A stretch of 64,000 nucleotides of DNA from Erysipelotrichaceae bacterium (GCA_017454765.1 JAFTCJ010000017.1:569-64568), one strand, 5' to 3'. Numbered from the stretch's first letter, positions 12,498 through 32,935 are shown. The notes: generated by a model from the sequence alone, not told the origin. Numbers and translations are program-made.

Positions 12498-12911
12498 TCA
12501 GAAAAAATCTTCGTCTTCTTCTTTCGCTTCGCTCTTGTCGAGTTCCACGACTCTCAGCATCATTCTGCTCTGTTCGACCAGTTCAGCCAGTTCCTCGTCC
12601 GAGATCTCTTCCTTGACGGCCAGTTCCAGGACCAGAGCCAGGTTGACGCCGGCGATCAGCCTCGTATTCGGTCTGTCCAGATAAGTGTACATGACCTGAT
12701 TGACGCTTCCGCCGTACAGATCCGAAAGCAGGATGACCTGATCTTCAGGCTCTACATTCTCATAGAAGCGATCCAGGTTTTCCTGTACGCTTTCCTGTGT
12801 CACGTAGGCATCAAACACTGTGATCCTGGGGTTGGGGCCCATCAGGATCTCAACGGAACTCTTGATTCCGCTGGCAAAATGTCCATGTGATGAAATAAAG
12901 AATTTAAGCAT
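12498..12911 (-). CDS. PTS mannose-family IIA component
   Basis: 137 aa. The N-terminal ISSHGHFASG is typical of EIIA-Man (active-site His in the SHG context). Confidence 0.85.
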   Translation of the reverse strand: MLKFFISSHGHFASGIKSSVEILMGPNPRITVFDAYVTQESVQENLDRFYENVEPEDQVILLSDLYGGSVNQVMYTYLDRPNTRLIAGVNLALVLELAVKEEISDEELAELVEQSRMMLRVVELDKSEAKEEDEDFF

Positions 12912-13004
12912 TTTGTTACCCTCTTATACATAAAAAATAACATTAACCTCTATGTTCTGTTAATGCTTATTTTTAAACTAAATTAAGTGTATTATATTGA
13001 ATTG

Positions 13005-13018
13005 CACCTTATAAGGTG
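13005..13018. promoter_or_regulatory. 14-bp perfect palindrome CACCTTATAAGGTG next to a TATAAT (-10, about 12991-12996 on the minus strand) upstream of the PTS operon
   Basis: Read directly. It sits 3 nt past the regulator stop codon and spans about -34 to -21 relative to the candidate -10. It could be an operator or a weak hairpin. Confidence 0.35.
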
Positions 13019-13021
13019 TAT

Positions 13022-15046
13022 CTAAGTGCTTGTAAACTTTCTTCTGATGATCGCATCAAAGATCTGTTCCAGGGTGCTGTCTCTGTCTTCCGTCAGTCTT
13101 TCCAGCGTATCCGGCACCTGAACGATATATCTCAGCATGTGATCCAGAATCTTAAGATCGGCCAGCTTCATTCGCGGATCGGCACAGACAGCGATGACCG
13201 CATTGACATCCAGCGTTTCCTGATAATAAATGCTTTCCTGCGGGATATAGATATCGATGATCTCCTTCCTCGTAAAGCGGTACGGGAAGAAAATGATCAT
13301 GACGCCGTTGCGGGGATAGTAATGGTTGATGATCCTCTCGTTCTCGACATACTGATCATAAAGGATCTTCTGGGTGTAGGGATCCCTGGCATAGCGGTAA
13401 GACAAAGCCTCCACAAAAGAAGTGATATCCTTGATCTGCTGCCTCTCATAAATGTTCATCTGCGACTTGATCCGTTCCAGCTCGCTGCGGTCAAAACCGT
13501 GGATGAAAAGTCTGTCAAAAAGCTCTCCCGGATTCCGGTCATAATCCAGTTCCTGATAAGCCACGATCGGAAGAGGATAGTTATAGTAAAGGATGACGCC
13601 GGAATGGACGACGGCATCATAGTCATCGAAGTTCACTTTCCGCATCTCATACAGGTTGTAGATATCGGCCTTTTCAACATAATTGCCGAACAGATCCATG
13701 AGGCTCTCGGCAATGTGCTGGGAATAGACCAGGCCTTCTGTCGTCGTGACCAGAAGTCTGAGTTTCCGGTAGGGATAGACGACCTTCTTCAGAATCCTCT
13801 CATAGACACCGGTGTAAGCCTGGACGACGGCATCGGAGATCGGCGAACCGAAACGCAGCTGCAGTCTGGCGATCATGACTCTGGTCAGTTCCAGGGGGAT
13901 CGGAGAAAACAGATCCTCATTGCCCTCCAGATAAGTGATCAGGCGGATCTTCCCGGTGTAATCAAAATGATGTTTCAGATACAGCTGCATCTGCAGGGAT
14001 TCCAGATCCTTGCTGTAGAGCCTGAACAGGTCGGTCTTGTAAAGCGCAGAAGCGATCGAAGAGATCGGGTCATCAGTCGCTCTGACGATATCTTCAAACA
14101 GTTCATGGTTCTCTCTCACCAGTTTCTGCGGCAGATCCTTTGTGCCGGTGATCCTGAGATTGAGGTCTCTGTTGATCAGCAGCAGTCTGGCAAAGTTGAG
14201 GATCTCGATCTCGGCCACTTCCACATAATCGCGGATCACGGGATCCGCAAAGATCTCTCTGGCGACCTCACAGTCATATGTCGCCTTCAGTTCCTGAGCG
14301 ATCTCTTCGCTCAGATCCGGATGTCTCCCTTCCCTGATGCGGTTATACATCAGACAGATATGGGAAGCGATCTTCTTCGTCTCGATATCGGAGATGACGA
14401 TGCGGCTGTTTCTAAGGACATCAAGAAAAGCTTTTCTTAATTCTGTATAATGATTAACACCGTCTTTGCGAAACAGGTCATCGAATTTATCATAAGGATA
14501 GAGCGGCTGAAATTCGTGGTATTGCGAACAGCGCAGTTCTACCAGAGCACTGCGCAGATCCTGTTCCTTTCCGGAAACATGATAGCCCTTACCTACGATC
14601 GCCTCCAGATCGATGCCGTAGGACTTCAGGAAACGGGAAGCCCAGCTGATGTCCTTGCGGATAGAGGAACGCGACATGTACAGTTCATCACAGAGATCTT
14701 CGATCTTGACATAATCATCCACCAGAAAACGCTGCACGATGTATATCCTGCGGTTGACAGCCTCCACGCTTCTTCCGTAATACATCGAAGAAAGGACATC
14801 GATACTGTCAGAAAATTCCTTATATTTTGTCTCGTCCTTTACATCGATCCTGTAGCCCTTTGCCTTGTAGGAACGGATACGGGCGATCCCTTCCTCGTCA
14901 CAGAGGGCGTTGAGATGAGCGATATCACTTTTGATCGTTCTCAGAGAAGAATTCGTCAGCTTTGCCAGAGTATTGGCGGTGACCGGTTCCTTTGCCTTGA
15001 TCAGGGTCCTGAGGATGATGATATGTCTGTATTTTTCGATTTTCAT
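13022..15046 (-). CDS. PRD-domain transcriptional regulator (HTH + PRDs + EIIB/EIIA-like C-terminal modules; LicR/MtlR-type)
   Basis: ORF 13022..15091. Preferred start is MKIEKYRHIIILRTLIKAKEPVTANTLAKLTNSSLRTIKSDI (winged-helix HTH). The central helical region is PRD-like. It lies directly upstream of the PTS operon. Confidence 0.7.
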   Translation of the reverse strand: MKIEKYRHIIILRTLIKAKEPVTANTLAKLTNSSLRTIKSDIAHLNALCDEEGIARIRSYKAKGYRIDVKDETKYKEFSDSIDVLSSMYYGRSVEAVNRRIYIVQRFLVDDYVKIEDLCDELYMSRSSIRKDISWASRFLKSYGIDLEAIVGKGYHVSGKEQDLRSALVELRCSQYHEFQPLYPYDKFDDLFRKDGVNHYTELRKAFLDVLRNSRIVISDIETKKIASHICLMYNRIREGRHPDLSEEIAQELKATYDCEVAREIFADPVIRDYVEVAEIEILNFARLLLINRDLNLRITGTKDLPQKLVRENHELFEDIVRATDDPISSIASALYKTDLFRLYSKDLESLQMQLYLKHHFDYTGKIRLITYLEGNEDLFSPIPLELTRVMIARLQLRFGSPISDAVVQAYTGVYERILKKVVYPYRKLRLLVTTTEGLVYSQHIAESLMDLFGNYVEKADIYNLYEMRKVNFDDYDAVVHSGVILYYNYPLPIVAYQELDYDRNPGELFDRLFIHGFDRSELERIKSQMNIYERQQIKDITSFVEALSYRYARDPYTQKILYDQYVENERIINHYYPRNGVMIIFFPYRFTRKEIIDIYIPQESIYYQETLDVNAVIAVCADPRMKLADLKILDHMLRYIVQVPDTLERLTEDRDSTLEQIFDAIIRRKFTST

Positions 15047-18879: not shown

Positions 18880-19971
18880 TCAGTCTATGAGTTCAAAAGT
18901 ATCACCAGCCCTGCTCATGCAGATGTCGGTCTTCAGAACAAGCGTACTGTTGTCCTTCTTTTCAAATTCGATCAGCTTGACATCCGCTCCCGTGTAACCT
19001 TCCATCTGGGAGTTGTCATCCACGTGGCAGATATAGCCGTCGCTCTTTTTCTCATACCAGCCCTTGATCTGAGCCATACCGGAATAGACGTTCTCGGTGA
19101 ACGTGAAGGCACCGGCTGTATCAAAGACGACCTTCGGCAGATACTGTTCTGCCACATCGGTATCGGTTATGTAACGCCATGAGGAGCCCTTGTTGCCCAG
19201 ATTGTCACCCATCGGTACCTGCAGAGCTTCCGGGATCGATCCGTTGGCAGAGAAGACATCGCCCGTCATTGAAACACCCAGATCCGTCATCAGGATCAGC
19301 GTGTTCTCATCATAGATCTGGAACTCGATCGCCTTGACGTTCTCACCAAACGGCGTGCCTTCGAAATTCTTCATGACGATCATGTAGCCGTTTTCGATCT
19401 CATAGGTTCCGTTGGCTTCCATGACACCGAAATCCTCCATGTCGATCATCGTGCAGGAATTATCCGAACGCACTTCGAAGCTGGACTTGTTGGTGGAAGT
19501 CTGGGACAGATTGTAATACGTCGTATAAGTGAAATCGGAATTGGCGATCTGGCCGTGTCCGGTGGAACCCTTGACTTCCGTCGTCGAGAAAGTCGCTCCG
19601 TCCTTGGAACCTTCCAGGGAAGTTTTCAGGGTCATCGTATCCTCGTCCTGCAGTTCAAACAGGATCTTGGAATATTGGCCGACAGAGGATTCCTTCACGT
19701 TCAGCGTCACGACATTCTCGCTCAGTGACCACTCACCGGTGATGTCATAGCTGCCGTTGAAGAAATTGTCCGTAAAAACGAATGTTCCGTCCTTGCCGAA
19801 CCACACCTTGGAATGATTCTCGTTGCCGTAATCATCGATGGTGTTGTAGTAAGTCCTGCCGGCAATGTCGAACTTGTTTTCAGGTGTTTCTTCTTCCTTC
19901 TTGCCGCCGCTGCAGGCACAAAGCATCATCGCCATCACAAACAGCAGGAATATCTTCTTCATCATTTTCAT
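18880..19971 (-). CDS. lipoprotein with three internal ~110-aa repeats, unknown function
   Basis: ORF 18880..19977. The ATG at 19969-19971 has better spacing from AAAGGAGG. It has a signal peptide plus lipobox (LCAC). Three modules each end in a T(L/M).L(K/M)T(S/D).....(G/D)..F-like string. Confidence 0.7.
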   Translation of the reverse strand: MKMMKKIFLLFVMAMMLCACSGGKKEEETPENKFDIAGRTYYNTIDDYGNENHSKVWFGKDGTFVFTDNFFNGSYDITGEWSLSENVVTLNVKESSVGQYSKILFELQDEDTMTLKTSLEGSKDGATFSTTEVKGSTGHGQIANSDFTYTTYYNLSQTSTNKSSFEVRSDNSCTMIDMEDFGVMEANGTYEIENGYMIVMKNFEGTPFGENVKAIEFQIYDENTLILMTDLGVSMTGDVFSANGSIPEALQVPMGDNLGNKGSSWRYITDTDVAEQYLPKVVFDTAGAFTFTENVYSGMAQIKGWYEKKSDGYICHVDDNSQMEGYTGADVKLIEFEKKDNSTLVLKTDICMSRAGDTFELID

Positions 19972-19983
19972 AGCCATCCTCCT

Positions 19984-21819
19984 TTATCCGTTCTTTTTGT
20001 CGCTCAGAATATAATTGATCTTTTCCACGATCGCCTTGTCGGCGTCGCAGTAATAGACTTTCTTATCCGATCCGTATTCCTTAAACAGATCATTGACCAT
20101 TCTCTCGCAGTCATACAGTTCCTCATTGCTGACGATCGCCGGATGCAGTTTCAGCTCGGGATCGTTTGCCCGCCTGCCGTCATATTTCTTAATGATGGCA
20201 GCGGTCTGTTCCCTGTTGGCCTGACGCCAGCCATGCACTCTTTCATAAGCCGACCAGCGGTCATGTTCGGCATCCGCCATCTTCTGCAGATTCTTTTCAT
20301 CGGAAAGCCACTTTGTGATAAACTCTTCATCACTTAAGGAATCATCATCCTTGAAAGAGAGGATATATCTCTGCTTGAAGCATAAAGCCAGTGCTTCTGC
20401 AAAAGAAGCTTCCTGATTCTGATAACGGTAGAAACCTGTTTCTTCCAGTATCTTTTCCTGATCTTCCTCATCCTGTTTGGAGAGATAAGACAGGTGAACG
20501 CGCTTGGCTGCTTCCTCCAGTTTCGGAGTGATCAGCTTGCTGTAGGTGAAGAAAGACTTCGTCTCACCGAAGAGGATGATGTCTTCCTCTTTGATGATCC
20601 TGTGCAGGTCGCTGTTTTCGATGCGGCAGAAGATCTTCGGAGATTTGAGTTCCCTGTTTCTGGCCACCAGGTCGCGGCGGATCCGTGCAGCCGTCTCATA
20701 GGCTGCCTCATCATCCTCATAAAGGACGAAGACGATGTCCGGGTCGGGAAGACTGTCGAATGCATCACTCTCTTTTCCATACGGACAGTTGAAGACTTTC
20801 AGATCATAGCGGTCTCCTTCCGGTGCCTGTCTGCGGAATTCGTCATACAGAGCAGAAGCTTTGGGACCGATCATTGAGACGATCGGACTGCTCTCGGGTC
20901 TGATCAGCAGACACAGCAGGTCTTTGACGAAACCGATCGCCGCATCGCTGTCGCAGATCACTGCTGCATGGCAATCAGCCTTGGAAGCAGCCTCGTCCAT
21001 GCATAAGAACATGCCTTCGACTGCCAGGGAATGCTTCTCGTCGATGTGACGCAGGAAGACTTCATCGGCATACTGCTTGTCCAGATTCAGGATCAGCTCT
21101 CTCTGATCATCGCCCGCAAAGACTCTGACGATGACTTTCTTGGGATCGTAGTTCTTATGCTTCCTGACCCGATTGCAGAAACAGGCGGCCGTGACCACGC
21201 TTTCGTGATCATCCTCTTCCAGCATGTAGAACTCGTAGTACTTGTTCTTTTTCAGATGGATCTGATCGATCGTCGTATTCAGACACAGGGCATTCATCTC
21301 CCTGGCTTCATTCTTGAGATATTCGTCGCATTCTTCGCAGTTGCAGAATATCAGCATACCGCCGATCTTTTCATCGACGATGCTTCTGGCGATCATCATC
21401 GATCTTTCGTTTAAAGAAGAGAAGACGTGGAAACGTTTCTTGCCGAAGAAAGAGATCGCACTTCTTAATGTTGAGGAGAAAGAGAAAAGAAACATGGAGC
21501 CGGCCAGAGGACCGATGATGTAGAGGAAATAAAGAAAAGTCCTGTAAGCCAGAAATTCATTCCGTTCCATTTCCAGCTCATAGGGAATGCTGCCGTTGAC
21601 GCCCATGGCGATACCGGAAATACCGGCACGGATGGATTCAATGACGGCGATCGGCAGATCGTCATCCAGATGATAATACGGAAAGACCAGGACCGTGATC
21701 GCCAAAGACAGCGCAGCCGATAAAGCCAGTGTCCTTGAACGGAAATCCTCATCCTTGCCGAAGACACGCCATATTCCATACAGCGTGATCACAAATGCAG
21801 CAGCCATATATTTCCACAT
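19984..21819 (-). CDS. multi-TM protein with large cytoplasmic region ending in a RyR-like domain
   Basis: 611 aa with about 4 N-terminal TM segments. The C-terminal string AEHDRWSAYERVHGWRQ...KLHPAIVSNEELYDCER matches the ExxRW...GW...HPxlVpyeeL pattern of RyR (PF02026-type) domains. Its stop is 6 nt from the lipoprotein start. Confidence 0.6.
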   Translation of the reverse strand: MWKYMAAAFVITLYGIWRVFGKDEDFRSRTLALSAALSLAITVLVFPYYHLDDDLPIAVIESIRAGISGIAMGVNGSIPYELEMERNEFLAYRTFLYFLYIIGPLAGSMFLFSFSSTLRSAISFFGKKRFHVFSSLNERSMMIARSIVDEKIGGMLIFCNCEECDEYLKNEAREMNALCLNTTIDQIHLKKNKYYEFYMLEEDDHESVVTAACFCNRVRKHKNYDPKKVIVRVFAGDDQRELILNLDKQYADEVFLRHIDEKHSLAVEGMFLCMDEAASKADCHAAVICDSDAAIGFVKDLLCLLIRPESSPIVSMIGPKASALYDEFRRQAPEGDRYDLKVFNCPYGKESDAFDSLPDPDIVFVLYEDDEAAYETAARIRRDLVARNRELKSPKIFCRIENSDLHRIIKEEDIILFGETKSFFTYSKLITPKLEEAAKRVHLSYLSKQDEEDQEKILEETGFYRYQNQEASFAEALALCFKQRYILSFKDDDSLSDEEFITKWLSDEKNLQKMADAEHDRWSAYERVHGWRQANREQTAAIIKKYDGRRANDPELKLHPAIVSNEELYDCERMVNDLFKEYGSDKKVYYCDADKAIVEKINYILSDKKNG

Positions 21820-21886
21820 GATTTTTTCTTCTCCTTCTTATCCTTTTCTATATTATACACCGTGGCTGACAACAGACAGGGTCCCG

Positions 21887-21914
21887 TTCAAAATACTCCA
21901 AAATCCGATATAAT
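21887..21914 (+). promoter_or_regulatory. candidate sigma-70-type promoter of the TIR gene
   Basis: TTCAAA, 16 nt, TATAAT, about 40 nt upstream of the AAAGGAG RBS. A divergent TATAAT for the minus-strand operon lies at about 21851-21856. Confidence 0.4.
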
Positions 21915-21954
21915 GATTTTAGAAAGAAAACGAAGATTGTCAAAGGAGTCGCTT

Positions 21955-23991
21955 ATGGCAGAAAAAGTATTCATCAGTTATTCCCATCAGGACAGTTCCT
22001 GTGCCCAGGGCATCGCCCGCTATCTGGAAAGACACGGCTGTGAAGTCTGGATCGATTCACAGGATCTTTCTGTCGGCGAAAAATGGGCCAGCAGCATCGA
22101 AACAGCCTTAAGTGAAGCGGAAGTCGTCGTCGGTCTTCTTTCCTCATCTTCCCTGCGCCGGGATGAAGTGCTTAAAGAGATCTCTTATTCTCTGAAACGC
22201 ATGGAAGAGGAAGGAACGGAAAACTTCCGTGTCTTCTTTGTCGTCATCGGCCAGATCCATCCGTCCTGGTTCAAGGATGATGAAAGAGTCGATATGATCA
22301 GAAGATATCTGGGCCAATACCAGTATGTCGAACTCAGCGCCTATGGTGAAGTGACGATCGACGCGATGAAGAAACTGCTGTCAGCCATCCGTCACAAAGG
22401 CATCGAAGAAGGAAGTCTGAATCTTTCCTTAAGCAATCAGAACGGCTTCATCAACCAGAATTCCCTGCCGGAGAAGACCTTTGACAACCTGGGCAACAAC
22501 ATCTTCTATAAAGTATTCCCGGCCGACCTGGCTCCTTCAGCCGTCTATCCCTTTGCGATGGACAACCAGTGGCTGCCTGAGGTCTTCTATGACAGAAAGA
22601 GCGATCTTTCCAAGGCTTTTGAAAAAGAAGGTTTCACCTCAGCTCAGGTCCTGGAATACCTGACCGAATTCAAATGCCGCAATTTCATCCTGTCCTTCTT
22701 CCAGTTCAAACAGGTCGTCATCAAACTGAATACGATCCTGTATGAACCCTATTTCCAGAAACTCATTCAGACGGAAGATGCAGACAGGGACGCTTTTGTC
22801 AAACTGCTGGAAAACGGCAGCATTACCCTTCTGCTCAACAACAAGCAGATGACGCCTTTCCTGCATCACAAGAGCAGCAAACCTGATCAAGGCAGGATCG
22901 ATGAAGCCTGGAACGACATCTGCGATGATACATCCGTCTACTGCATCAGGGAAAACTGGGCATCGACATCCGATCAGCACAGCATGGACTTCTTAAGGTT
23001 CTGTTCCAACCTGGCGATGGACCACAACAATAATATCCTCCTGGCCCAGGCCATGCATCTGGACGAAAGCCAGATCAATGCTTTCCTGGTCACGTTGAAG
23101 ACCATCTCCATGCAGGCCTTCTGTCAGACACACATGAACGGCACCCAGGCCCAGGACAAAGTCGATGACTACAGCCGCACCCTCTTCTATGAGAATTACA
23201 TCGTCAGAAACGGCGATGAGAATATCGAGGATGCGGTCTACAAGTGCCGCTTTGATCAAAACAAACCGTTCCATCACGAACTCAAGCGCCTGATCGATAT
23301 CTACTATAACTCCATCTTCTGCAACACCCTGCAGTGTGATGCCCTGTTACCGGATGATCTTCGTCCCGAGAACTATTACCTGCATTCCCTGTACATCTCC
23401 AACGGCGAGAAAGAGGTCAGTATCGAGGAACTGCAGTATGCCTTCTCCGAATTCTTCGCGAACTGCGAAGTCCTGGATGAGATCGAAGCGATCGGTTCCA
23501 ATCTCTATCTGGAAAACTGGGATCTGACCAGAGTCGTTGAACTCAGGGACAAGGAAGCCTGGTATGAATATGTGGAACTCCTGGAAATGATCAACCGCCG
23601 TTCCAATCTCTGGAAAGTCGATTTCAATGAAATAGAACTCTTATTGCAGAGACTTCTGAGATGTTTCGACGAGAGACCGGACAAGGCAGCCGACAGGGAT
23701 ATCGCCTGCAGTTTCCGTGTCATGGTCGGATCGAAAGTACTGGATATCGTCAAGACAAACAAAGTCTCCAAGATCAAGGAATACGGCGGATCCTATGCCG
23801 ATCCGGGCAAGATCCCTCTCAAAGTCCTCTTCTGTGTCGGAGACCTGACCAGAGAAAACAGGAAAGACATCATCTTCCTGCCGGTCACTCTTTTTGACGG
23901 AAGGATCGATACTTCCGACGGAGACGGTTTCTTCAACAAACTCAAGGAATTCATACTGAAACAGTGTGACTTCGTTCTGATCAATCAGTAA
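21955..23991 (+). CDS. TIR-domain protein (N-terminal ~140 aa) with an unassigned ~530-aa C-terminal region
   Basis: ORF 21862..23991. Preferred start is MAEKVFISYSHQDS (ATG 21955, RBS AAAGGAG). The TIR_2-like pattern is FISYSHQD...GCEVWIDSQDLSVGEKW...AEVVVGLLSSSSLRRDEVLKEI. I recognise nothing in the rest. Confidence 0.8.
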   Translation: MAEKVFISYSHQDSSCAQGIARYLERHGCEVWIDSQDLSVGEKWASSIETALSEAEVVVGLLSSSSLRRDEVLKEISYSLKRMEEEGTENFRVFFVVIGQIHPSWFKDDERVDMIRRYLGQYQYVELSAYGEVTIDAMKKLLSAIRHKGIEEGSLNLSLSNQNGFINQNSLPEKTFDNLGNNIFYKVFPADLAPSAVYPFAMDNQWLPEVFYDRKSDLSKAFEKEGFTSAQVLEYLTEFKCRNFILSFFQFKQVVIKLNTILYEPYFQKLIQTEDADRDAFVKLLENGSITLLLNNKQMTPFLHHKSSKPDQGRIDEAWNDICDDTSVYCIRENWASTSDQHSMDFLRFCSNLAMDHNNNILLAQAMHLDESQINAFLVTLKTISMQAFCQTHMNGTQAQDKVDDYSRTLFYENYIVRNGDENIEDAVYKCRFDQNKPFHHELKRLIDIYYNSIFCNTLQCDALLPDDLRPENYYLHSLYISNGEKEVSIEELQYAFSEFFANCEVLDEIEAIGSNLYLENWDLTRVVELRDKEAWYEYVELLEMINRRSNLWKVDFNEIELLLQRLLRCFDERPDKAADRDIACSFRVMVGSKVLDIVKTNKVSKIKEYGGSYADPGKIPLKVLFCVGDLTRENRKDIIFLPVTLFDGRIDTSDGDGFFNKLKEFILKQCDFVLINQ

Positions 23992-24017
23992 AGGCTGCCG
24001 AAGCAGCCTTTCTTTTA
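23991..24017 (+). terminator. rho-independent terminator after the TIR gene
   Basis: AAGGCTGC-CGAA-GCAGCCTT followed by TCTTTTAT, starting right after the stop codon. Confidence 0.75.
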
Positions 24018-24037: not shown

Positions 24038-25768
24038 TTAATCTTTATCGACCAGATCCGAAACTACTTCAACGATATCCTTTGCTCCGCTGATACCGGC
24101 GCTGTGTTCATGGGCACCTGCCTCCTTGTCGACAGCTCCCTTGATGGAATCGATGTCATCCACCAGACCGGCAACGGATGCGACTGTATCCAGACCGAGA
24201 ATCGAAGCAATATCGGAAATGATGGTGGCCGTCTCACTGACACCGATCTCTTCGCTTTCCAGCGTGGACTTGATGTCCTTTCCGGAAGTGTAGACATCGA
24301 TGACCTTGGAAACACCTGGGATGCCTAAAAAGTCAGCGACAGCTCCGATGTTGCTTAAAGATTCATCGGACTTGATATCCGGTTTCAAAATCGGCAGGAT
24401 GAACTTCATCAGGATCTCGTTTTTCTCTGACCCGTAAGGAAGATAGTTGACGATCATCTTGTCCTTAATGCGATTGTCGAGCTTTCTCTTGTGATCCTTG
24501 ATGAACTCATCAGTCGTCACGACAGCGACATCTGTTTCTGCCAGAGCTTCTTTCTTCTGTTTCAGGAGCTCTTCATATCTTTCTTCACTTAAAACATCAA
24601 TAATAACCAGATCAGGTGAATCCTCTTCCACCTTTTCTTCGATCTCACCGTTGTCACAGGTACTGATGACAAGGTGTTTCTTACTCTTCAGTACATTCAC
24701 AAGATCTTCATCCTTGCTGGCGACAAGGATCGACTTGTCTTCAATGGAAGGTTTCTCAAACTCTTTCACTTTCTTGGCCGCCTCTTTCAGCAGCTGTGCC
24801 GCCTTGCGTTTTCTCAGATACATCCACAGACCGCCTAATACAGCAGCGATACCTGCACCTCCCACCGCAATGATAGGTGTCGGATCTTTTCTTGCCAGAA
24901 CATGAGAAAGCACATGGCCGCAGTAATAGCAGGTCTTTGTTTCAAGACCCTCTTCCAGATAACTGGGTTCTTTCTCCAAAGTCCACTCCTTGGGATACTT
25001 ATGTCCGGCTGGCAGGATCTTTTCTTTCCATGATTCTCCGCAGCGCTTACATAACGCTTCTCTTTCGCCTTCTTCTTCACAGGTCGGAGCTTTGAGAATG
25101 GTGTATTCCAGATCATGACCTAAAGCAGGATAGATGTCATCGACTACCATTCCGCAGCGTTTACAGGTTCCCTTCTTGTATCCGTCCTCCGTACAGGTAG
25201 CTTCTTTTTCATCATATTCGATATCATGACCGAGAGCTTCTATGGTTTTGGTATAGCTCTTATCACATCTGGTACAGGTATATGTCCTGACACCGTCTTC
25301 CTCGCAGGTCGCTTCCTTAGTGACTTTGGATTTATAGTTATGGCCTAAGGCTGCGATGGTTTCCGTATAACTGTCTCCGCAGCGCGAACACTCAAACAGT
25401 TCTGTTCCGGTCTCGGTGCAGGTCGCTTTTTTTGTGACTTTTGATGTATAGCTGTGACCGAGTGGAGGAGCATAAACGGTGCCTCCGTTATAAGGAGAGT
25501 TGTCCTGCATCGTGTGCGCGGCAGTATTATAACAGTATACTTCCGCATAGCTTCCTTCCGTACAGGTCGGAACGTTACTGGAAATAAAACTATACTGTAA
25601 CGGCTGGCCGCACCATGGACAGTTTCCGAAATCATAAGCATTTGCTCTGTGCACATGAACATGAAGAGGTTTTTCATAGTCTTCGTGCTCTTCATCATGA
25701 AATACCGCAAACGATATGCTGCTGAACACCAAAAGGAATATAACAATCTTAATTAATTTCTTTTTCAT
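24038..25768 (-). CDS. single-pass membrane receptor-like protein, paralog A
   Basis: 576 aa. In order it has: a signal/anchor, the His-rich stretch FHDEEHEDYEKPLHVHVH, about five C-x9-C-x2-C-x12-H repeats, a TM (IIAVGGAGIAAVLGGLWMYL then RKRK), a receiver-like cytoplasmic domain and an acidic conserved tail. Confidence 0.75.
   Translation of the reverse strand: MKKKLIKIVIFLLVFSSISFAVFHDEEHEDYEKPLHVHVHRANAYDFGNCPWCGQPLQYSFISSNVPTCTEGSYAEVYCYNTAAHTMQDNSPYNGGTVYAPPLGHSYTSKVTKKATCTETGTELFECSRCGDSYTETIAALGHNYKSKVTKEATCEEDGVRTYTCTRCDKSYTKTIEALGHDIEYDEKEATCTEDGYKKGTCKRCGMVVDDIYPALGHDLEYTILKAPTCEEEGEREALCKRCGESWKEKILPAGHKYPKEWTLEKEPSYLEEGLETKTCYYCGHVLSHVLARKDPTPIIAVGGAGIAAVLGGLWMYLRKRKAAQLLKEAAKKVKEFEKPSIEDKSILVASKDEDLVNVLKSKKHLVISTCDNGEIEEKVEEDSPDLVIIDVLSEERYEELLKQKKEALAETDVAVVTTDEFIKDHKRKLDNRIKDKMIVNYLPYGSEKNEILMKFILPILKPDIKSDESLSNIGAVADFLGIPGVSKVIDVYTSGKDIKSTLESEEIGVSETATIISDIASILGLDTVASVAGLVDDIDSIKGAVDKEAGAHEHSAGISGAKDIVEVVSDLVDKD
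24900..25470 (-). repeat. in-frame ~37-codon repeat array (ATCxExG-x5-CxRC-x9-ALGH) in paralog A, about 5 copies
   Basis: For example ATCEEDGVRTYTCTRCDKSYTKTIEALGHDIEYDEKE followed by ATCTEDGYKKGTCKRCGMVVDDIYPALGHDLEY. Confidence 0.8.
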
Positions 25769-25891: not shown

Positions 25892-27685
25892 TCAGTCTTT
25901 GTCGATCAGATCCGACACTACATCAACGATATCCTTTGCGCCGCTGATGCCGCCTTTATGCTCATAGGCACCGGCTTCTTTATCTGTTGCAGCTTTGATG
26001 GAATCGATATCATCCACAAGACCAGCCACAGATGCAACGGTATCTAATCCAAGAATTGATGCAATATCTCCGATAATTGTAGCTGCTTCACTTGTACCGA
26101 TTTCTTCACTCTCCAGAGTAGCCTTGATATCTCTGGCGGATACATAGACATTGATGACTTCGGAGATGCCCGGAATGCCTAAGAAGTCTGCCGCTGCTCC
26201 GATATTGCTTAAAGATTCATCGGACTTGAGATCCGGTTTCAGGATCGGCAGGAAAAACTTCAACATGACCGAGATCTCATCCGGTTTATAAGGAAGATAA
26301 TTGATGATCGTCTTATCCTTGACACGGTTGTTGAGTTTTCTCTTATGATCCTTGATGAACTCGTCTGTCGTCATGACGGCGATGTTCTGCTCTGCCAAAG
26401 CTTCCTTCTTCTGTTGCAGAAGCTCGTCATATCTTTCTTCACTTAAGACATCCATGATGATCAGATCAGGTGAATTTTCTTCTGCCGTTTCCTCAATCTC
26501 ATCATCTTCACAGGTACTTACTTCAAGGAAGGACTTGTTCTTGAGTATAGCCAGCAGATCTTCATCCTTGCTGGATACAAGAACGGATTTATCTTCAAAA
26601 GAAGGTTTCTCAAATCCTCTGAGTTTCTTTGCCGCTTCCTTGACCAGCTGTGCCGCTTTACGTTTCTTCAGATACATCCAAAGACCACCGCCTACGACCG
26701 CAGCGGTTCCGCCTGTTGTTACAACGATGGGAGCCGGGCTCTTCTTTGCAAGAATATGGGAAAGAACATTTCCGCAATAGTAACACGTCTTCGTTTCCAG
26801 ACCCTCCTCTGTATAAGAAGGCTCTTTCACAAGCGTCCACTCTTTCGGATACTTATGGCCTGCGGGAAGGATCTTTTCGTTCCATGTCTCGCCGCAACGC
26901 TTACAGGCAGCCTGACGTTCCCCTTCTTCTTCACAGGTCGCGGCTTTCAGTATGACATATTCAAGATCATGACCTAAAGCAGGATAGATGTCGTTCACTT
27001 CTTTGTTACATCTCTTGCAGGTTCCTTTCTTGTAACCATCTTCCGTACAGGTAGCTTCTTTCTCTTCGTATTCGATATCATGACCCAGGGCTTCGATTAT
27101 CTTGGTATACTCTTTTTTACATCTGGAGCAGGTATAAGTTCTTTCGCCTTCTTCTTCACATGTCGCTTCTTTGGTGACCTTGCTTTTATAGTTATGGCCT
27201 AAAGCTTCTACGGTTTCCGTATATGAATTACCGCAGCGGGTACATTCATAGTAATCCTCTCCGGATTGAGTACAAGTGGCTTCTTTAATGACCGTCTTGT
27301 TATAACTGTGACCTAAAGCAGGGATAGTCGTCTCACGCGGTTCTTCACAGCGGCTGCATCTTTCATGCCTTATTCCGTTTTTTGTACAGGTTGCAGGCTC
27401 TTCAGTTAACGTAAAATAGTCATGACCTAACGGGGGAGTTGTACCTGAGAACGAGTAGCCGCAACTGTCGCATACAGCAGTGAATGCCCCTGATTCGATA
27501 CAGCCGGAGTTATATCCTGTTGTAACTACCATTGTTCCTGTAGTACAACTTGGACACGTACCATATACATCTCCTGCCTCGTATGCATGCACATGGTGAT
27601 GAAGCTCTTCATCATGAAATGCAGCATAAGAAAAACTTCCGAACAGCACGATGAATATCAATAATTTGATAAAAACCTTTTTCAT
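25892..27685 (-). CDS. single-pass membrane receptor-like protein, paralog B (one extra repeat)
   Basis: 597 aa with the same architecture as paralog A. The N-terminus reads FHDEELHHHVH, there are about six Cys/His repeats, and the C-terminal 300 aa are nearly collinear with A. Confidence 0.75.
   Translation of the reverse strand: MKKVFIKLLIFIVLFGSFSYAAFHDEELHHHVHAYEAGDVYGTCPSCTTGTMVVTTGYNSGCIESGAFTAVCDSCGYSFSGTTPPLGHDYFTLTEEPATCTKNGIRHERCSRCEEPRETTIPALGHSYNKTVIKEATCTQSGEDYYECTRCGNSYTETVEALGHNYKSKVTKEATCEEEGERTYTCSRCKKEYTKIIEALGHDIEYEEKEATCTEDGYKKGTCKRCNKEVNDIYPALGHDLEYVILKAATCEEEGERQAACKRCGETWNEKILPAGHKYPKEWTLVKEPSYTEEGLETKTCYYCGNVLSHILAKKSPAPIVVTTGGTAAVVGGGLWMYLKKRKAAQLVKEAAKKLRGFEKPSFEDKSVLVSSKDEDLLAILKNKSFLEVSTCEDDEIEETAEENSPDLIIMDVLSEERYDELLQQKKEALAEQNIAVMTTDEFIKDHKRKLNNRVKDKTIINYLPYKPDEISVMLKFFLPILKPDLKSDESLSNIGAAADFLGIPGISEVINVYVSARDIKATLESEEIGTSEAATIIGDIASILGLDTVASVAGLVDDIDSIKAATDKEAGAYEHKGGISGAKDIVDVVSDLIDKD
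26758..27433 (-). repeat. in-frame ~37-codon Cys/His repeat array in paralog B, about 6 copies
   Basis: For example ATCTQSGEDYYECTRCGNSYTETVEALGHNYKSKVTKE followed by ATCEEEGERTYTCSRCKKEYTKIIEALGHDIEYEEKE. Confidence 0.8.
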
Positions 27686-27835: not shown

Positions 27836-29062
27836 ATGCCTGAAAAGACAACGAAATACATTGAGAAAAACAGAACTGTAAAAATGATTGAGATCATTTC
27901 TCTGATCCTTTTAATCTTTGTTTCTGCTTTCTCTGTGTTTTCAGGCTACCGTAAGATCCATTCCGATCCGGGTGAACCGGATTATATCGGAACCGCCGAA
28001 ATGACCAGGGATGATTCACTGGAAGACTATGATGAGGATTCCACTGTCTGCGATGTCGTCTATGTGAACGGAGATGACAGACTGATCGTCTCTTATCCGT
28101 ATGAAGAATACATCGATCTGGATCAGGAAAAGATCACGGCTTATCAGTATCAGAGCGAAGACGGAACAGCTCTTTTCTTTGACCGGAAGGATCCGGATAT
28201 CAGTCAGATCAGAAAGACTTATCAGACGATCAAAGCCGAAGAGACGATGCCTTTATTCAATCTGGGCAACGGCTTGCTGATCGTGGCATTATCTCTGTTC
28301 ATCGTTCTGTTCTGGTCAGGCTTCTTCACAACATATGAAAAGGTCTGGTTTTTGTCCATCATGGCGCTGGCGACTGTTGTCTCTGTCCTCTTTCCAGAAG
28401 AAAGCGCCAACGGCGTCAACGGCATCGTCATTATGCTGCTGTATCTGCTGGATACCTTCCTCAATATCCTGTGTGAACTGCTGATCTCCAAACAGTCCCG
28501 TTACAATTTCCTGGTATCAGTTGCGGTCGAGATCTGCGAGATCGCAATCTGTCTGGTTCTGATGTACCGCTTTGCGACGATGGCCACGACTCTCTTCTTC
28601 TGGCTGCCGATCGATATCCTCAGTTTCATCAACTGGAGCAGGCATAAAGATGATGTGGAGGAAGAACTGACGGCTGTCAGAAGACTCAAAGGCTATCAGG
28701 AAGTACTGATCATCCTGGCGATCATCGTCTGGACGCTTGTTGTGGGTTATTTCTTAAGCGGGCTCAATATCAGGACCGACTTCTTCGCCGGAAACAAAGA
28801 CCTGGAGACCATCGTCAGCTACATGGATGCCTGTGCTTCGGCAGTCGGCGTGGCCAACGGTCTATTCATCTTCTTCCGCTTAAGAGAACAGTGGATCGCC
28901 TGGTACATCTGCGCCCTGCTGGAAGCCATCATCAACATCATCACCGGGCAGTATGTACTGCTGGTATTGAAACTGGGTTATTTCACCAATACCACCTACG
29001 GTTACATCAGGTGGAGCCGCTATATCAGGACACACAAGGAAGCGGAAAAATCATTATTGTAG
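27836..29062 (+). CDS. PnuC-like nicotinamide riboside transporter family protein with ~140-aa N-terminal extension
   Basis: The C-terminal 260 aa show a PnuC-like pattern (WLPIDILSFINWSRH ... LREQWIAWYICALLEAIINI ... YGYIRW). The N-terminus adds one TM plus an acidic extracytoplasmic segment. Confidence 0.65.
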   Translation: MPEKTTKYIEKNRTVKMIEIISLILLIFVSAFSVFSGYRKIHSDPGEPDYIGTAEMTRDDSLEDYDEDSTVCDVVYVNGDDRLIVSYPYEEYIDLDQEKITAYQYQSEDGTALFFDRKDPDISQIRKTYQTIKAEETMPLFNLGNGLLIVALSLFIVLFWSGFFTTYEKVWFLSIMALATVVSVLFPEESANGVNGIVIMLLYLLDTFLNILCELLISKQSRYNFLVSVAVEICEIAICLVLMYRFATMATTLFFWLPIDILSFINWSRHKDDVEEELTAVRRLKGYQEVLIILAIIVWTLVVGYFLSGLNIRTDFFAGNKDLETIVSYMDACASAVGVANGLFIFFRLREQWIAWYICALLEAIINIITGQYVLLVLKLGYFTNTTYGYIRWSRYIRTHKEAEKSLL

Positions 29063-31777: not shown

Positions 31778-32935
31778 TTACCAGTAATCTGCCGAGAACC
31801 CGCTCTCATATTCATCCAGAGGGATCTGTTTCCTCAGGGTCTTTTCGATTTCTATGAAGCGGCTGCTGCCGATCATATCCAGTGCCGCATCGATCTCTTC
31901 TTTGCCGCCCTGGATCTCCATCGTCACCGAACCGTCTCCTTCGTTTTTCACATAGCCGGTCAGTCCCAGCTGCTCCGCCGCCATCATTGCCTGGAATCGG
32001 AAACCGACTCCCTGTACGGTGCCGAAGAATTGAATGTGCTCCCTGATCTTCTCCCTGCTCATGTTCACGTCCTCTTTGACTTCATATTCTTCCGAAAGGA
32101 AATGCTTCAGTGCATCGATCCGCTTCTCCGCTTCCCTCCTGCCGATCTGATAGACCCTTTCCATCTCGTTTGGATCTTTCTCCACCCTGCCGATCTTCAG
32201 ATCTTCCGGCGGACGGATCACGAAGGAAATGCCTTTCTTTTCCCGTTTTGCGATCTCCCGTAACTGATGATTGTAGATGATATGGCGGTTGGCCATCGTC
32301 TCGATCAGCAAGGGATAATCCCTGAGGACGATCTTCATCAGCGGAAGAAGTTTATTCTTTCCTTTCTGATAGGTCTTTGGCTGGGTCAGCACGATGACGT
32401 TGCGGTCATAGCCCTGACTCTCCATGAATTCAAACGGAATCGAATCGGCGATGCCGCCGTCCAGCAGTTCATATCCGTCGATCTTCACGACCCTTGAGAC
32501 CAGAGGCATCGAAGCTGAAGCCCTCATCCACTGGGTGTCATTTTCCAGGCCGTCGGTACATAAATGGTAGATGCACTTCCCCGTCCGAACGTCGGTCGCG
32601 CCGACATAGAACTCCATCGGATTCTTTTCAAACGCTTCCGCATCGAAGGGATCCAGATACAGAGGCACTTCCCGGTAACAGAAATCGGCCCCGTAAAGAT
32701 CGCCGGTCGTGATCAGGGAATGAAGGGAGCAGTAGCGTTTGTCCCTGCAGAAAGTCTCGTTGTAGCGCCTGGGCCTGCCGTGCTGCCTTGATTTGTAGTT
32801 ACATCCGAAAACAGCACCGGCTGAAATGCCGATCCCGCCGTCAAATTCGATATCATTCTCCATCAGGACATCCATGACGCCGCAGGTGAACAGACCCCGC
32901 ATCGCTCCGCCTTCCAGAATAAGACCTTTTTTCAT
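31778..32935 (-). CDS. patatin-like phospholipase fused to a C-terminal acylphosphatase domain
   Basis: Patatin part: EGGAMRG (oxyanion loop), GISAGA (GxSxG) and LLDGGIADSIP (catalytic Asp). C-terminal 90 aa: GTVQGVGFRF and GYVKNEGDGSV, both acylphosphatase signatures. Confidence 0.8.
   Translation of the reverse strand: MKKGLILEGGAMRGLFTCGVMDVLMENDIEFDGGIGISAGAVFGCNYKSRQHGRPRRYNETFCRDKRYCSLHSLITTGDLYGADFCYREVPLYLDPFDAEAFEKNPMEFYVGATDVRTGKCIYHLCTDGLENDTQWMRASASMPLVSRVVKIDGYELLDGGIADSIPFEFMESQGYDRNVIVLTQPKTYQKGKNKLLPLMKIVLRDYPLLIETMANRHIIYNHQLREIAKREKKGISFVIRPPEDLKIGRVEKDPNEMERVYQIGRREAEKRIDALKHFLSEEYEVKEDVNMSREKIREHIQFFGTVQGVGFRFQAMMAAEQLGLTGYVKNEGDGSVTMEIQGGKEEIDAALDMIGSSRFIEIEKTLRKQIPLDEYESGFSADYW

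Follow-up and report, generated by a model that had tools for sequence, protein, structure and literature searches.

A TIR protein with an undescribed conserved module, beside a putative RyR-like membrane partner, in a possible NAD+-linked conflict system of an Erysipelotrichaceae bacterium

The stretch analysed here, called the window throughout, is 64,000 nucleotides (nt) of DNA from an Erysipelotrichaceae bacterium (GCA_017454765.1 JAFTCJ010000017.1:569-64568), and the gene of interest in it encodes TIR-X, a protein in which an N-terminal TIR domain precedes a C-terminal region of about 510 amino acids (aa) that we name X. Sequence comparison and gene context suggest a possible role for TIR-X in defence, as part of a TIR-based, nicotinamide adenine dinucleotide (NAD+)-linked conflict system whose core module is undescribed and in which a divergently encoded membrane protein, c1, is possibly a new type of effector. 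The longest frame in the open reading frame (ORF) listing runs from 21862 to 23991 on the plus strand (709 aa), and the ATG at 21955, giving a product of 678 aa, is taken as the real start because a ribosome-binding site (RBS) precedes it and close homologues all begin MAEKVFISYSH; this start is shared by about 97 full-length homologues. A TATAAT box 35-50 nt 5′ of the start is kept in 12 related loci together with the GGAG site, and a hairpin and T-run separate the stop codons of the two convergent genes, at 23991 and 24038 (Table 1). With a divergent gene on one side (19984-21819, minus strand) and a convergent gene on the other (24038-25768, minus strand), TIR-X is monocistronic. GC content is unremarkable. 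A hydrophobicity scan finds neither a signal peptide nor a hydrophobic segment in the product, which would be a cytoplasmic protein of two parts.

The TIR domain is readily recognized. Pfam TIR_2 (PF13676) covers residues 5-115 (E=8.9e-21, 75.1 bits against a cut-off of 28), and the AlphaFold2 (AF2) model adopts the flavodoxin-like TIR fold, which Foldseek matches with probability 1.00 to the TIR structures of SPARTA, plants and AbTir; with the full-length model as query, Foldseek returns TIR matches only, headed by SPARTA, plant and bacterial TIRs. In HMMER alignments, Glu75 of the LKEI motif coincides with the glutamate of the W-x-x-x-E motif in BtTir (7uxr) and PdTIR (3h16) and is conserved in 47 of 47 homologues, while the Trp position of that motif is occupied by Glu71 in TIR-X. 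These alignments predict an active TIR domain with Glu75 as its catalytic residue.

Module X has a confident predicted fold and no recognizable relative. Full-length TIR-X is modelled with a predicted local distance difference test (pLDDT) of 86.2 and a predicted template-modelling score (pTM) of 0.80 around a disordered linker at residues 156-163, and residues 165-678 alone with values of 88.6 and 0.89. In the model of X, an alpha/beta core is accompanied by a helical region and, at the C-terminus, by a subdomain of beta-sheet. Residues ~150-678 match nothing in Pfam, PADLOC or NCBIfam, nor do stand-alone X proteins; neither a single-sequence query nor a 17-sequence profile finds a relative among PDB sequences; and the X-only model gives nothing significant in Foldseek searches of the PDB (best E=0.2, template-modelling (TM) score <=0.26) and nothing in BFVD. 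The best of these structural matches, Rv3378c (E=0.2, TM 0.24), was dismissed as noise. A P-loop or STAND core was sought within residues 150-678, where neither the motif nor the family is detected, and X matches none of SAVED, APAZ, SLOG, Macro or SIR2. An earlier reading of the window from its sequence alone (the original prediction) had described a TIR_2-type pattern over residues 1 to ~140 with the LKEI glutamate at the catalytic position of NAD+-hydrolysing (NADase) TIRs, then a C-terminal region without a P-loop that could be assigned to no family, all in a single-gene unit with its own promoter, good RBS and terminator. Each of these points agrees with the results above: the quoted TIR motifs are found, Glu75 is invariant, the profile, Foldseek and AlphaFold analyses leave the C-terminal region unassigned, and the -10 box is conserved beside the RBS, hairpin and flanking gene orientations.

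Conservation within X is concentrated at the ends of its core strands. Strands 196-199, 253-257, 290-293 and 329-331 alternate with helices, and the strongest conserved motifs lie directly after strands (D203-N-Q-W206, N/K257-R/L258 and R332-E-N-W335). About 15 polar or aromatic residues are invariant across phyla, the core set comprising D203, Q205, W206, R332 and W335 together with R408, Y412, D434, K437, K444, D448, Y451, R531, W536 and Y539 of the helical part. The window protein matches the family profile over its full length and keeps the core residues (D-N-Q-W, R..W, R...Y, D..K, K...D..Y, R....W..Y), the exceptions in its subclade being R258L and a few others. Invariant residues at strand ends suggest a conserved small-molecule site and not a sensor of fast-evolving phage proteins, and the pattern would be expected of an alpha/beta domain that binds a ligand or performs catalysis; since the polar strand-end residues sit in an alpha/beta core, we infer that X handles a nucleotide of the ADP-ribose (ADPR) type. 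Residues 257-258 (22723-22728) read K-L in 9/9 sequences of the window subclade in place of the otherwise conserved N-R, and a basic residue at 258 is retained in the sister subclade that lacks c1 and in nearly all other sequences (N-R/N-K in Clostridia; 2 exceptions/47). This change may mark a functional shift in X. A loss of Glu297 in the same subclade was dropped because of a column offset between alignments, leaving R258L as the only robust change.

The X family is large and widespread, and is undescribed among annotated families or solved structures. A profile search with X alone returns 415 clusters, defined at 50% identity, at E<=1e-3 and 123 at E<=1e-30, and a word-index search brings up about 97 TIR-X proteins of full length from Firmicutes of the gut and rumen, those of Erysipelotrichaceae being 58-77% identical to the window protein and those of Lachnospiraceae and Oscillospiraceae 32-44%. 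Besides TIR-X, the architectures include stand-alone X of ~500-540 aa and the fusions HEAT-X, Metallophos-X, TIR-X-NUDIX, GT4-conflict+TIR+X, PNP-X, DUF4062-X, pYEATS-X, DUF1822-X and HTH-X. In public records these proteins are named "hypothetical" or "TIR domain-containing". A literature search found no described system combining TIR, NUDIX, IMPase and X, which is not proof of absence.

Outside the window lineage, X is closely tied to small hydrolases. We retrieved 73 metagenomic loci with the stand-alone-X alignment and called and clustered their ORFs. A NUDIX gene directly adjoins X on the same strand in 36 of the 51 loci with near-complete X, the placements being 30 downstream and 12 upstream. 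The encoded proteins (226-262 aa) form one cluster and are nearest to the NudE (ADP-compounds hydrolase), AdpP and NAD-diphosphatase models, all below cut-offs. The same family overlaps TIR-X by 4 bp in a Ruminococcus and an Oscillospiraceae metagenome-assembled genome (MAG; L031/L032; E=8e-69, 4e-66), overlaps of X and NUDIX genes range over 4-8 bp (L031/L032, L036-L038, L040), and in four TIR-X proteins NUDIX is fused to the C-terminus. Some loci hold up to three NUDIX paralogues and a HAD phosphatase around X, and stand-alone X with NUDIX occurs without any other effector. In Clostridia, whose TIR-X is ~35-44% identical to the window protein, an Inositol_P-family phosphatase (IMPase) lies directly downstream in 13 of the 13 loci with enough sequence. 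X is thus recurrently fused or linked to nucleotide and NAD enzymes (TIR, DUF4062, PNP, Metallophos) and to a dedicated ADP-sugar-type NUDIX or IMPase. A six-frame translation of the whole 64-kb window, searched with hidden Markov models, contains neither a NUDIX nor an IMPase of the partner families; the window lineage has lost its hydrolase partner.

These linkages admit an account in which X is itself an enzyme, making or modifying an ADPR-derived or other phosphorylated nucleotide that serves as a toxic product or signal, with NUDIX, IMPase or HAD acting as antidote or off-switch in the manner of a toxin-antitoxin pair; the fused TIR may then only supply a substrate such as ADPR, and X may be partly degenerate in the window lineage. 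The invariant Asp, Arg and Lys at the strand ends of the core would suit such an enzyme, as would the overlapping and fused X and NUDIX genes, the loci with several NUDIX paralogues and a HAD phosphatase, and the occurrence of X and NUDIX without another effector. The window subclade, moreover, has lost both the basic residue 258 (KL vs NR/NK/KR) and the hydrolase. However, X resembles no known enzyme fold or motif, 500 aa is large for a toxin, and the window protein keeps almost all core residues with no hydrolase in 64 kb, which would be hazardous if the product were toxic. We consider an enzymatic X distinctly unlikely.

The wider neighbourhoods of X are of a conflict type. In addition to HAD phosphatases, recurrent neighbours are pentapeptide-repeat proteins, TIR-NB-ARC-TPR, nSTAND1(-WD40), DUF4062-STAND-TPR, extra TIR proteins, integrase, MoxR-vWA, TIR-FGE-sulfatase, TIR-WD40, transposases and type IV secretion system (T4SS) coupling proteins. 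These STAND, TIR and mobile-element neighbours place the X family, taken overall, in surroundings of a conflict or defence type. As regards defence islands, the relatives thus sit among STAND, TIR, TPR and mobile-element genes, whereas the window gene has housekeeping neighbours. Two distantly related TIR-X loci (L031 13681-17133 and L115 3132-6809) share a nearby gene for a large soluble protein of 1150-1225 aa, in which two AAA+ modules are combined with an FtsH-like M41 peptidase; this protein may be another component or effector of X islands. In one further locus (L035 1-17533), stand-alone X is followed by TIR-NB-ARC-TPR, with two genes of the NUDIX cluster (one Pfam-confirmed) and TGT/DpdG-type genes of a 7-deazaguanine DNA-modification island nearby.

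Such an arrangement recalls two sets of known systems. The first comprises the NTP-dependent, nucleotide-centric conflict systems of Aravind and colleagues (Kaur et al. 2020, PMC7159879), in which effectors such as TIR, PNPase, calcineurin-like phosphoesterase, GT4-conflict, pYEATS, HEAT and pentapeptide repeats are swapped on a constant module and nSTAND1, NB-ARC-TPR and MoxR-vWA are neighbours, as they are around X. X differs in lacking an NTPase motif and in matching no Pfam family derived from that work, and its core pairing with NUDIX or IMPase is not named in the searched passages of that paper. X likewise differs from the STAND/Avs TIR NTPases: TIR-X residues 150-678 contain no NTPase family, and STAND proteins appear only as neighbours of stand-alone X elsewhere. 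The second set is that of signal-degrading partners, among them the ring nucleases of type III CRISPR and the NUDT7-type Nudix hydrolases of plants, which act on TIR products. Here too a gene for a dedicated small-molecule hydrolase (NUDIX, IMPase, HAD or RyR) lies beside a signal-handling protein, but the likeness is an analogy only, and the window lineage has no NUDIX or IMPase hydrolase.

On its divergent side TIR-X adjoins c1, a membrane protein with a putative RyR-like end. The two genes are adjacent in 13 Erysipelotrichaceae loci, the window included, separated by 80-150 bp in which an inserted gene is never present, while the outer flanks vary (AhpC-side, PTS/lipoprotein-side and two other contexts). 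In a MAG of Faecalibacterium (L027), c1 has a full-length homologue, aligned over ~570 residues by BLASTP (E=1e-8 to 1e-19), that lies upstream of TIR-X and IMPase in the same orientation; a word-index search for c1 homologues returns Erysipelotrichaceae only. The c1 C-terminus matches the bona fide RyR protein of a gut metagenome contig (L005) in BLASTP (E=2e-5) and the RyR family alignment in hhalign (93.4%, E=2.5e-7, 50 columns). The c1 family shows no variation at H519, W522, H559 and P560, the first three of which correspond to H34, W37 and H59 in the alignment with the L005 protein. Because c1 stays beside TIR-X as the flanks change and ends in a RyR-like region, we regard it as a candidate partner.

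Phage proteins with RyR domains offer a guide to what this end of c1 might do. According to a 2026 preprint, they cleave 2'cADPR and 3'cADPR, isomers of cyclic ADP-ribose (cADPR), to ADPR (RyDEP) or bind both with nanomolar affinity, the ligand in RyDEP being held by H75, W78 and H100 and the catalytic dyad formed by H75 and D117 (PMC13232231). In c1 the position of the catalytic Asp, 17 residues after H559, is taken by Asn576, and Asn stands there in most c1 sequences, so that c1 is predicted to be a binder and not a glycosidase; its C-terminal domain would then bind ligands of the ADPR type without hydrolysing them. The c1 end and the 97-aa RyR protein of L005 share with RyDEP and the phage RyR family (PF02026) the H-x-x-W ... 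H-P motif and the residue spacing. Unlike the phage proteins, the c1 domain is host-encoded, is fused to a membrane and a central region, carries a 15-residue insertion, mostly has Asn for the catalytic Asp and falls below Pfam detection; we propose a receptor or effector, not an anti-defence protein.

The L005 contig (7910-22022) is a dense conflict island in its own right. Its genes run from bpMoxR and vWA through a 695-aa gene overlapping TIR-X, IMPase and the 97-aa RyR protein to TIR-FGE-sulfatase, TIR-WD40 and two TPR proteins. The 695-aa gene, which overlaps the TIR-X start, has the layout of c1, with a transmembrane region, a weak Slo-like RCK match and a RyR-like end; the two proteins show no global homology, and only their RyR-like ends match. 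The RyR protein itself (12783-13076; PF02026 E=3e-37), two genes downstream of TIR-X, carries H34, W37, H59 and D76 with spacing identical to the RyDEP residues, and since all four are kept it may be a host-encoded cADPR glycosidase. A protein search with it returns 6,181 clusters of stand-alone ~97-aa RyR proteins at E<=1e-3; the best 120 of the 6,181 are 76-89% identical to the query, except the query's own cluster and a 65% outlier.

Table 1 Features of the TIR-X locus (coordinates counted from the first letter of the window; "." denotes no strand)
Feature	Coordinates	Strand	Basis
TIR-X coding sequence, 678 aa plus stop codon	21955..23991	+	ORF call, Pfam, homologue starts
RBS AAAGGAG, 6 nt 5′ of the ATG	21942..21948	+	direct sequence reading
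Promoter-like TTCAAA-16 nt-TATAAT (sigma-70-like) for TIR-X	21887..21914	+	10/12 consensus matches
Terminator-like hairpin AAAGGCTGC-CGAA-GCAGCCTTT (G+C-rich), then T-run	23990..24011	.	between convergent genes
TIR domain, residues 1-147	21955..22395	+	Pfam TIR_2; AF2 elements to helix 135-146; Foldseek
Glu75 codon, predicted catalytic glutamate	22177..22179	+	alignment with 7uxr, 3h16; invariant in 47 sequences
Low-confidence linker, residues 148-170	22396..22464	+	pLDDT <50 at residues 156-163 (AF2)
Module X, residues 171-678	22465..23988	+	confident model; profile search; conserved residues
c1, 611-aa membrane protein, candidate partner	19984..21819	-	directly upstream of TIR-X, 13 Erysipelotrichaceae loci
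c1 N-terminal membrane region, ~residues 1-125	21445..21819	-	hydrophobic segments 30-48, 94-112
c1 putative RyR-like (R12-type) domain, ~residues 508-580	20080..20298	-	BLASTP, hhalign, PDB profile, invariant H519/W522/H559-P560
Promoter-like TTGACA-16 nt-TAAAAT facing c1, overlapping the TIR-X 5′ region	21916..21943	-	11/12; consensus match only
c2, two paralogous Cys-rich membrane proteins, 576 and 597 aa	24038..27685	-	usually downstream of TIR-X, Erysipelotrichaceae

Taken together, these observations suggest an NAD+/ADPR-linked conflict module, plausibly a Thoeris-like pair of TIR-X and c1, to which we give a probability of about 0.4. In the mechanism we propose, X would bind or process an ADPR-type nucleotide and control the fused TIR; a trigger acting through X would activate the TIR, which would cleave NAD+ to nicotinamide and ADPR or a cyclic ADPR isomer; and this product would be bound by the RyR-like domain of c1, which would then change membrane integrity or ion flux and so arrest the infected cell. 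In other lineages, NUDIX, IMPase, HAD or RyR genes may clear or process the nucleotide. A Thoeris-like relay appears the most likely reading because of the lost hydrolase and the head-to-head c1 with its His/Trp/His residues and Asn for Asp. The fuller proposal, that c1 is the receptor and effector for a cADPR-type signal from TIR-X and that X is a new nucleotide-handling fold forming an unrecognised class of NAD+/ADPR conflict systems with NUDIX or IMPase, is rather unlikely.

Thoeris systems consist of ThsB, a TIR signal generator, and an effector, and are known as types I-XI, with membrane effectors such as ThsF and ThsH among them. The resemblance lies in the pairing of a TIR whose catalytic Glu is intact with a neighbouring membrane protein that carries a putative cADPR-binding domain, so that a TIR product could act on a ligand-gated effector. 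Canonical cADPR, 2'cADPR and 3'cADPR are established Thoeris signals according to a preprint survey, which discarded stand-alone TIR genes and in the searched text of which no RyR-type or X-type component is listed (10.64898/2025.12.03.692087). TIR-X differs from ThsB in carrying a conserved 510-aa module that ThsB lacks; the PADLOC ThsB models match its residues 3-52 only (E=9e-7 or worse), and the score with the NCBIfam model for Thoeris type III falls far short of the cut-off. Moreover, c1 is divergent and not in the TIR-X operon, and a RyR-like domain corresponds to no described Thoeris effector domain.

Several observations weigh against a Thoeris-like pair. The best PADLOC matches of the TIR part are NAD-depleting effector TIRs (TIR-SAVED, E=7e-15; pAgo-associated TIR), and ThsB is not among them. 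Beside TIR-X, c1 is absent from an Erysipelotrichaceae subclade (L016-L021) and from most Clostridia loci, so the X family does not have it as a core component, and its adjacency to TIR-X, mostly confined to one bacterial family, could be due in part to inherited synteny. The assignment of a RyR domain to c1 has its own weaknesses: c1 has no match in Pfam (none at E<=0.1, RyR PF02026 included), PADLOC or NCBIfam, its hhalign match spans 50 columns with a 15-residue insertion, its best PDB profile match, a RyR1 repeat, reaches only E=0.05 as weak single-model support, and the RyDEP source is a preprint. For X, many of the invariant residues fit an enzyme as well as a regulator, and stand-alone X and HEAT-X, being without an obvious effector, suggest that X has an output of its own. 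Finally, the housekeeping neighbours and unremarkable GC content mean that the local context gives no defence signal.

The effector-type character of the TIR bears directly on a different account, in which TIR-X is a self-contained abortive-infection NADase: X senses infection, the TIR oligomerises, NAD+ depletion stops the phage, and c1 is an unrelated syntenic neighbour. Known proteins of similar build are TIR-SAVED of CBASS and TIR-APAZ of SPARTA, which also join an N-terminal TIR NADase to a large C-terminal regulatory domain and suggest for TIR-X a model in which a ligand or partner induces oligomerisation and so turns on the hydrolysis of NAD+. The likeness stops at the TIR. The PADLOC SAVED_TIR model aligns to residues 3-146 only and the Aga_TIR models to residues 3-93 only; X is neither SAVED nor APAZ; and among the TIR-X neighbours scanned (~10 kb) there is no CD-NTase and no short pAgo-like gene. 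A self-contained NADase would fit the monocistronic gene with its own promoter and terminator, the subclade L016-L021 in which TIR-X has neither c1 nor IMPase nor NUDIX, the proximity to effector TIRs seen both in PADLOC and, for SPARTA, by Foldseek, and the swapping of N-terminal effectors (TIR, DUF4062, PNP, Metallophos) on a constant X, much as in single-protein systems that combine sensor and effector. It sits poorly with the invariant residues of X across phyla, unusual for a sensor of fast-evolving phage proteins, with the tight coupling or fusion of the family elsewhere to a dedicated NUDIX or IMPase, with stand-alone X and HEAT-X, which have no effector domain, and with a c1 that remains adjacent despite changing flanks and recurs in Faecalibacterium. 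We consider it rather unlikely. The original prediction had raised the possibility of a self-contained TIR system with a new sensor domain. Beyond the TIR_2 assignment, the unassignable C-terminus and the monocistronic gene, that proposal is in need of revision: X belongs to a large family with invariant residues and is not a lineage-specific sensor, and it is coupled or fused to NUDIX or IMPase elsewhere and has a candidate partner, c1, here. The accompanying statement that the usual partners (SIR2/SLOG, CD-NTase, cyclase, pAgo) are absent from the window is correct over the range checked, about ±10 kb of TIR-X.

The genes within ~10 kb of TIR-X in the window encode an Mga-like regulator, GH1, PTS EIIC, a lipoprotein, EF-P, SDR, methionine gamma-lyase, a patatin-acylphosphatase fusion, a TrxR-like oxidoreductase and a PnuC-type nicotinamide-riboside transporter. 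Such a setting would suit physiological NAD+-derived signalling in place of an anti-phage function, with TIR-X reporting metabolic or NAD status to c1, perhaps tied to nicotinamide-riboside uptake through the PnuC-like transporter 4 kb downstream. The normal GC content and the presence of TIR-X in 18 Erysipelotrichaceae-type species-representative contigs returned by a scan of GTDB are in keeping with this account, as is the failure to find X relatives in IMG/VR viral contigs (two X alignments), INPHARED phage records or PLSDB plasmid records (tblastn). Against it stand the very patchy distribution (28 TIR-X loci among 185,579 species representatives in the same pattern-limited scan), the relatives that lie within mobile elements or beside STAND and TIR genes of conflict type, and the varying outer flanks of the c1/TIR-X cassette between related genomes, and we consider it quite improbable.

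The origin of the organism raises one further alternative. TcpB, TcpC and TirS are bacterial TIR proteins that target the host, and an association with the gut or rumen would allow TIR-X to be a Tcp-like protein delivered to animal host cells to interfere with TLR/MyD88 signalling. The absence of a signal peptide or hydrophobic segment in TIR-X, the invariant catalytic Glu, which points to enzymatic use of the TIR, and the presence of the X family, together with NUDIX and STAND partners, in bacteria of soil and water make the chance of this next to negligible.

On the other side of TIR-X, the c2 paralogues (24038-25768 and 25892-27685, both on the minus strand) match no family. Their N-terminal halves consist of repeated Cys-rich units (C..C...C..CG..YT..I.ALGH), a hydrophobicity scan places a transmembrane segment near residue 300 in the first paralogue only, and the C-terminal domain is conserved. 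As a core partner of TIR-X, c2 was downgraded because its link is looser than that of c1: inserted genes split it from TIR-X in three loci (L009-L011) and it is absent from another (L008). Farther along, the PnuC-type gene (27836-29062, plus strand) encodes a transporter for nicotinamide riboside or nicotinamide mononucleotide (TIGR01528, 53 bits; cut-off 42) that is extended by ~200 aa at its N-terminus; a gene of this type also lies near TIR-X in two other loci (L008, L030), which could be coincidence or an NAD-salvage link. A single 385-aa protein (31778-32935, minus strand) is an unusual fusion of a patatin-like phospholipase, DUF6363 and acylphosphatase, and the lipoprotein (18880-19977, minus strand; signal peptide ending LCAC), with DUF4488 and lipocalin-like matches, appears internally duplicated.

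TIR-based NAD+ signalling is common to bacterial, plant and animal immunity, and new TIR sensor and effector modules have repeatedly been mechanistically informative. X is a blind spot of the databases, a confident predicted fold with no solved or annotated relative, which matters for the discovery of defence systems. The stepwise change of partner across the family, from NUDIX to IMPase to none with a RyR-like membrane protein, amounts to a natural experiment on the regulation of a signal. The link between cADPR and the ryanodine receptor has long been debated, and c1, next to a TIR enzyme, offers a candidate for a bacterial membrane effector gated by cADPR, one that can be tested directly and could inform this question. 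If the proposal is true, the pair of c1 and TIR-X would correspond in bacteria to the cADPR-to-ryanodine-receptor axis of animals.

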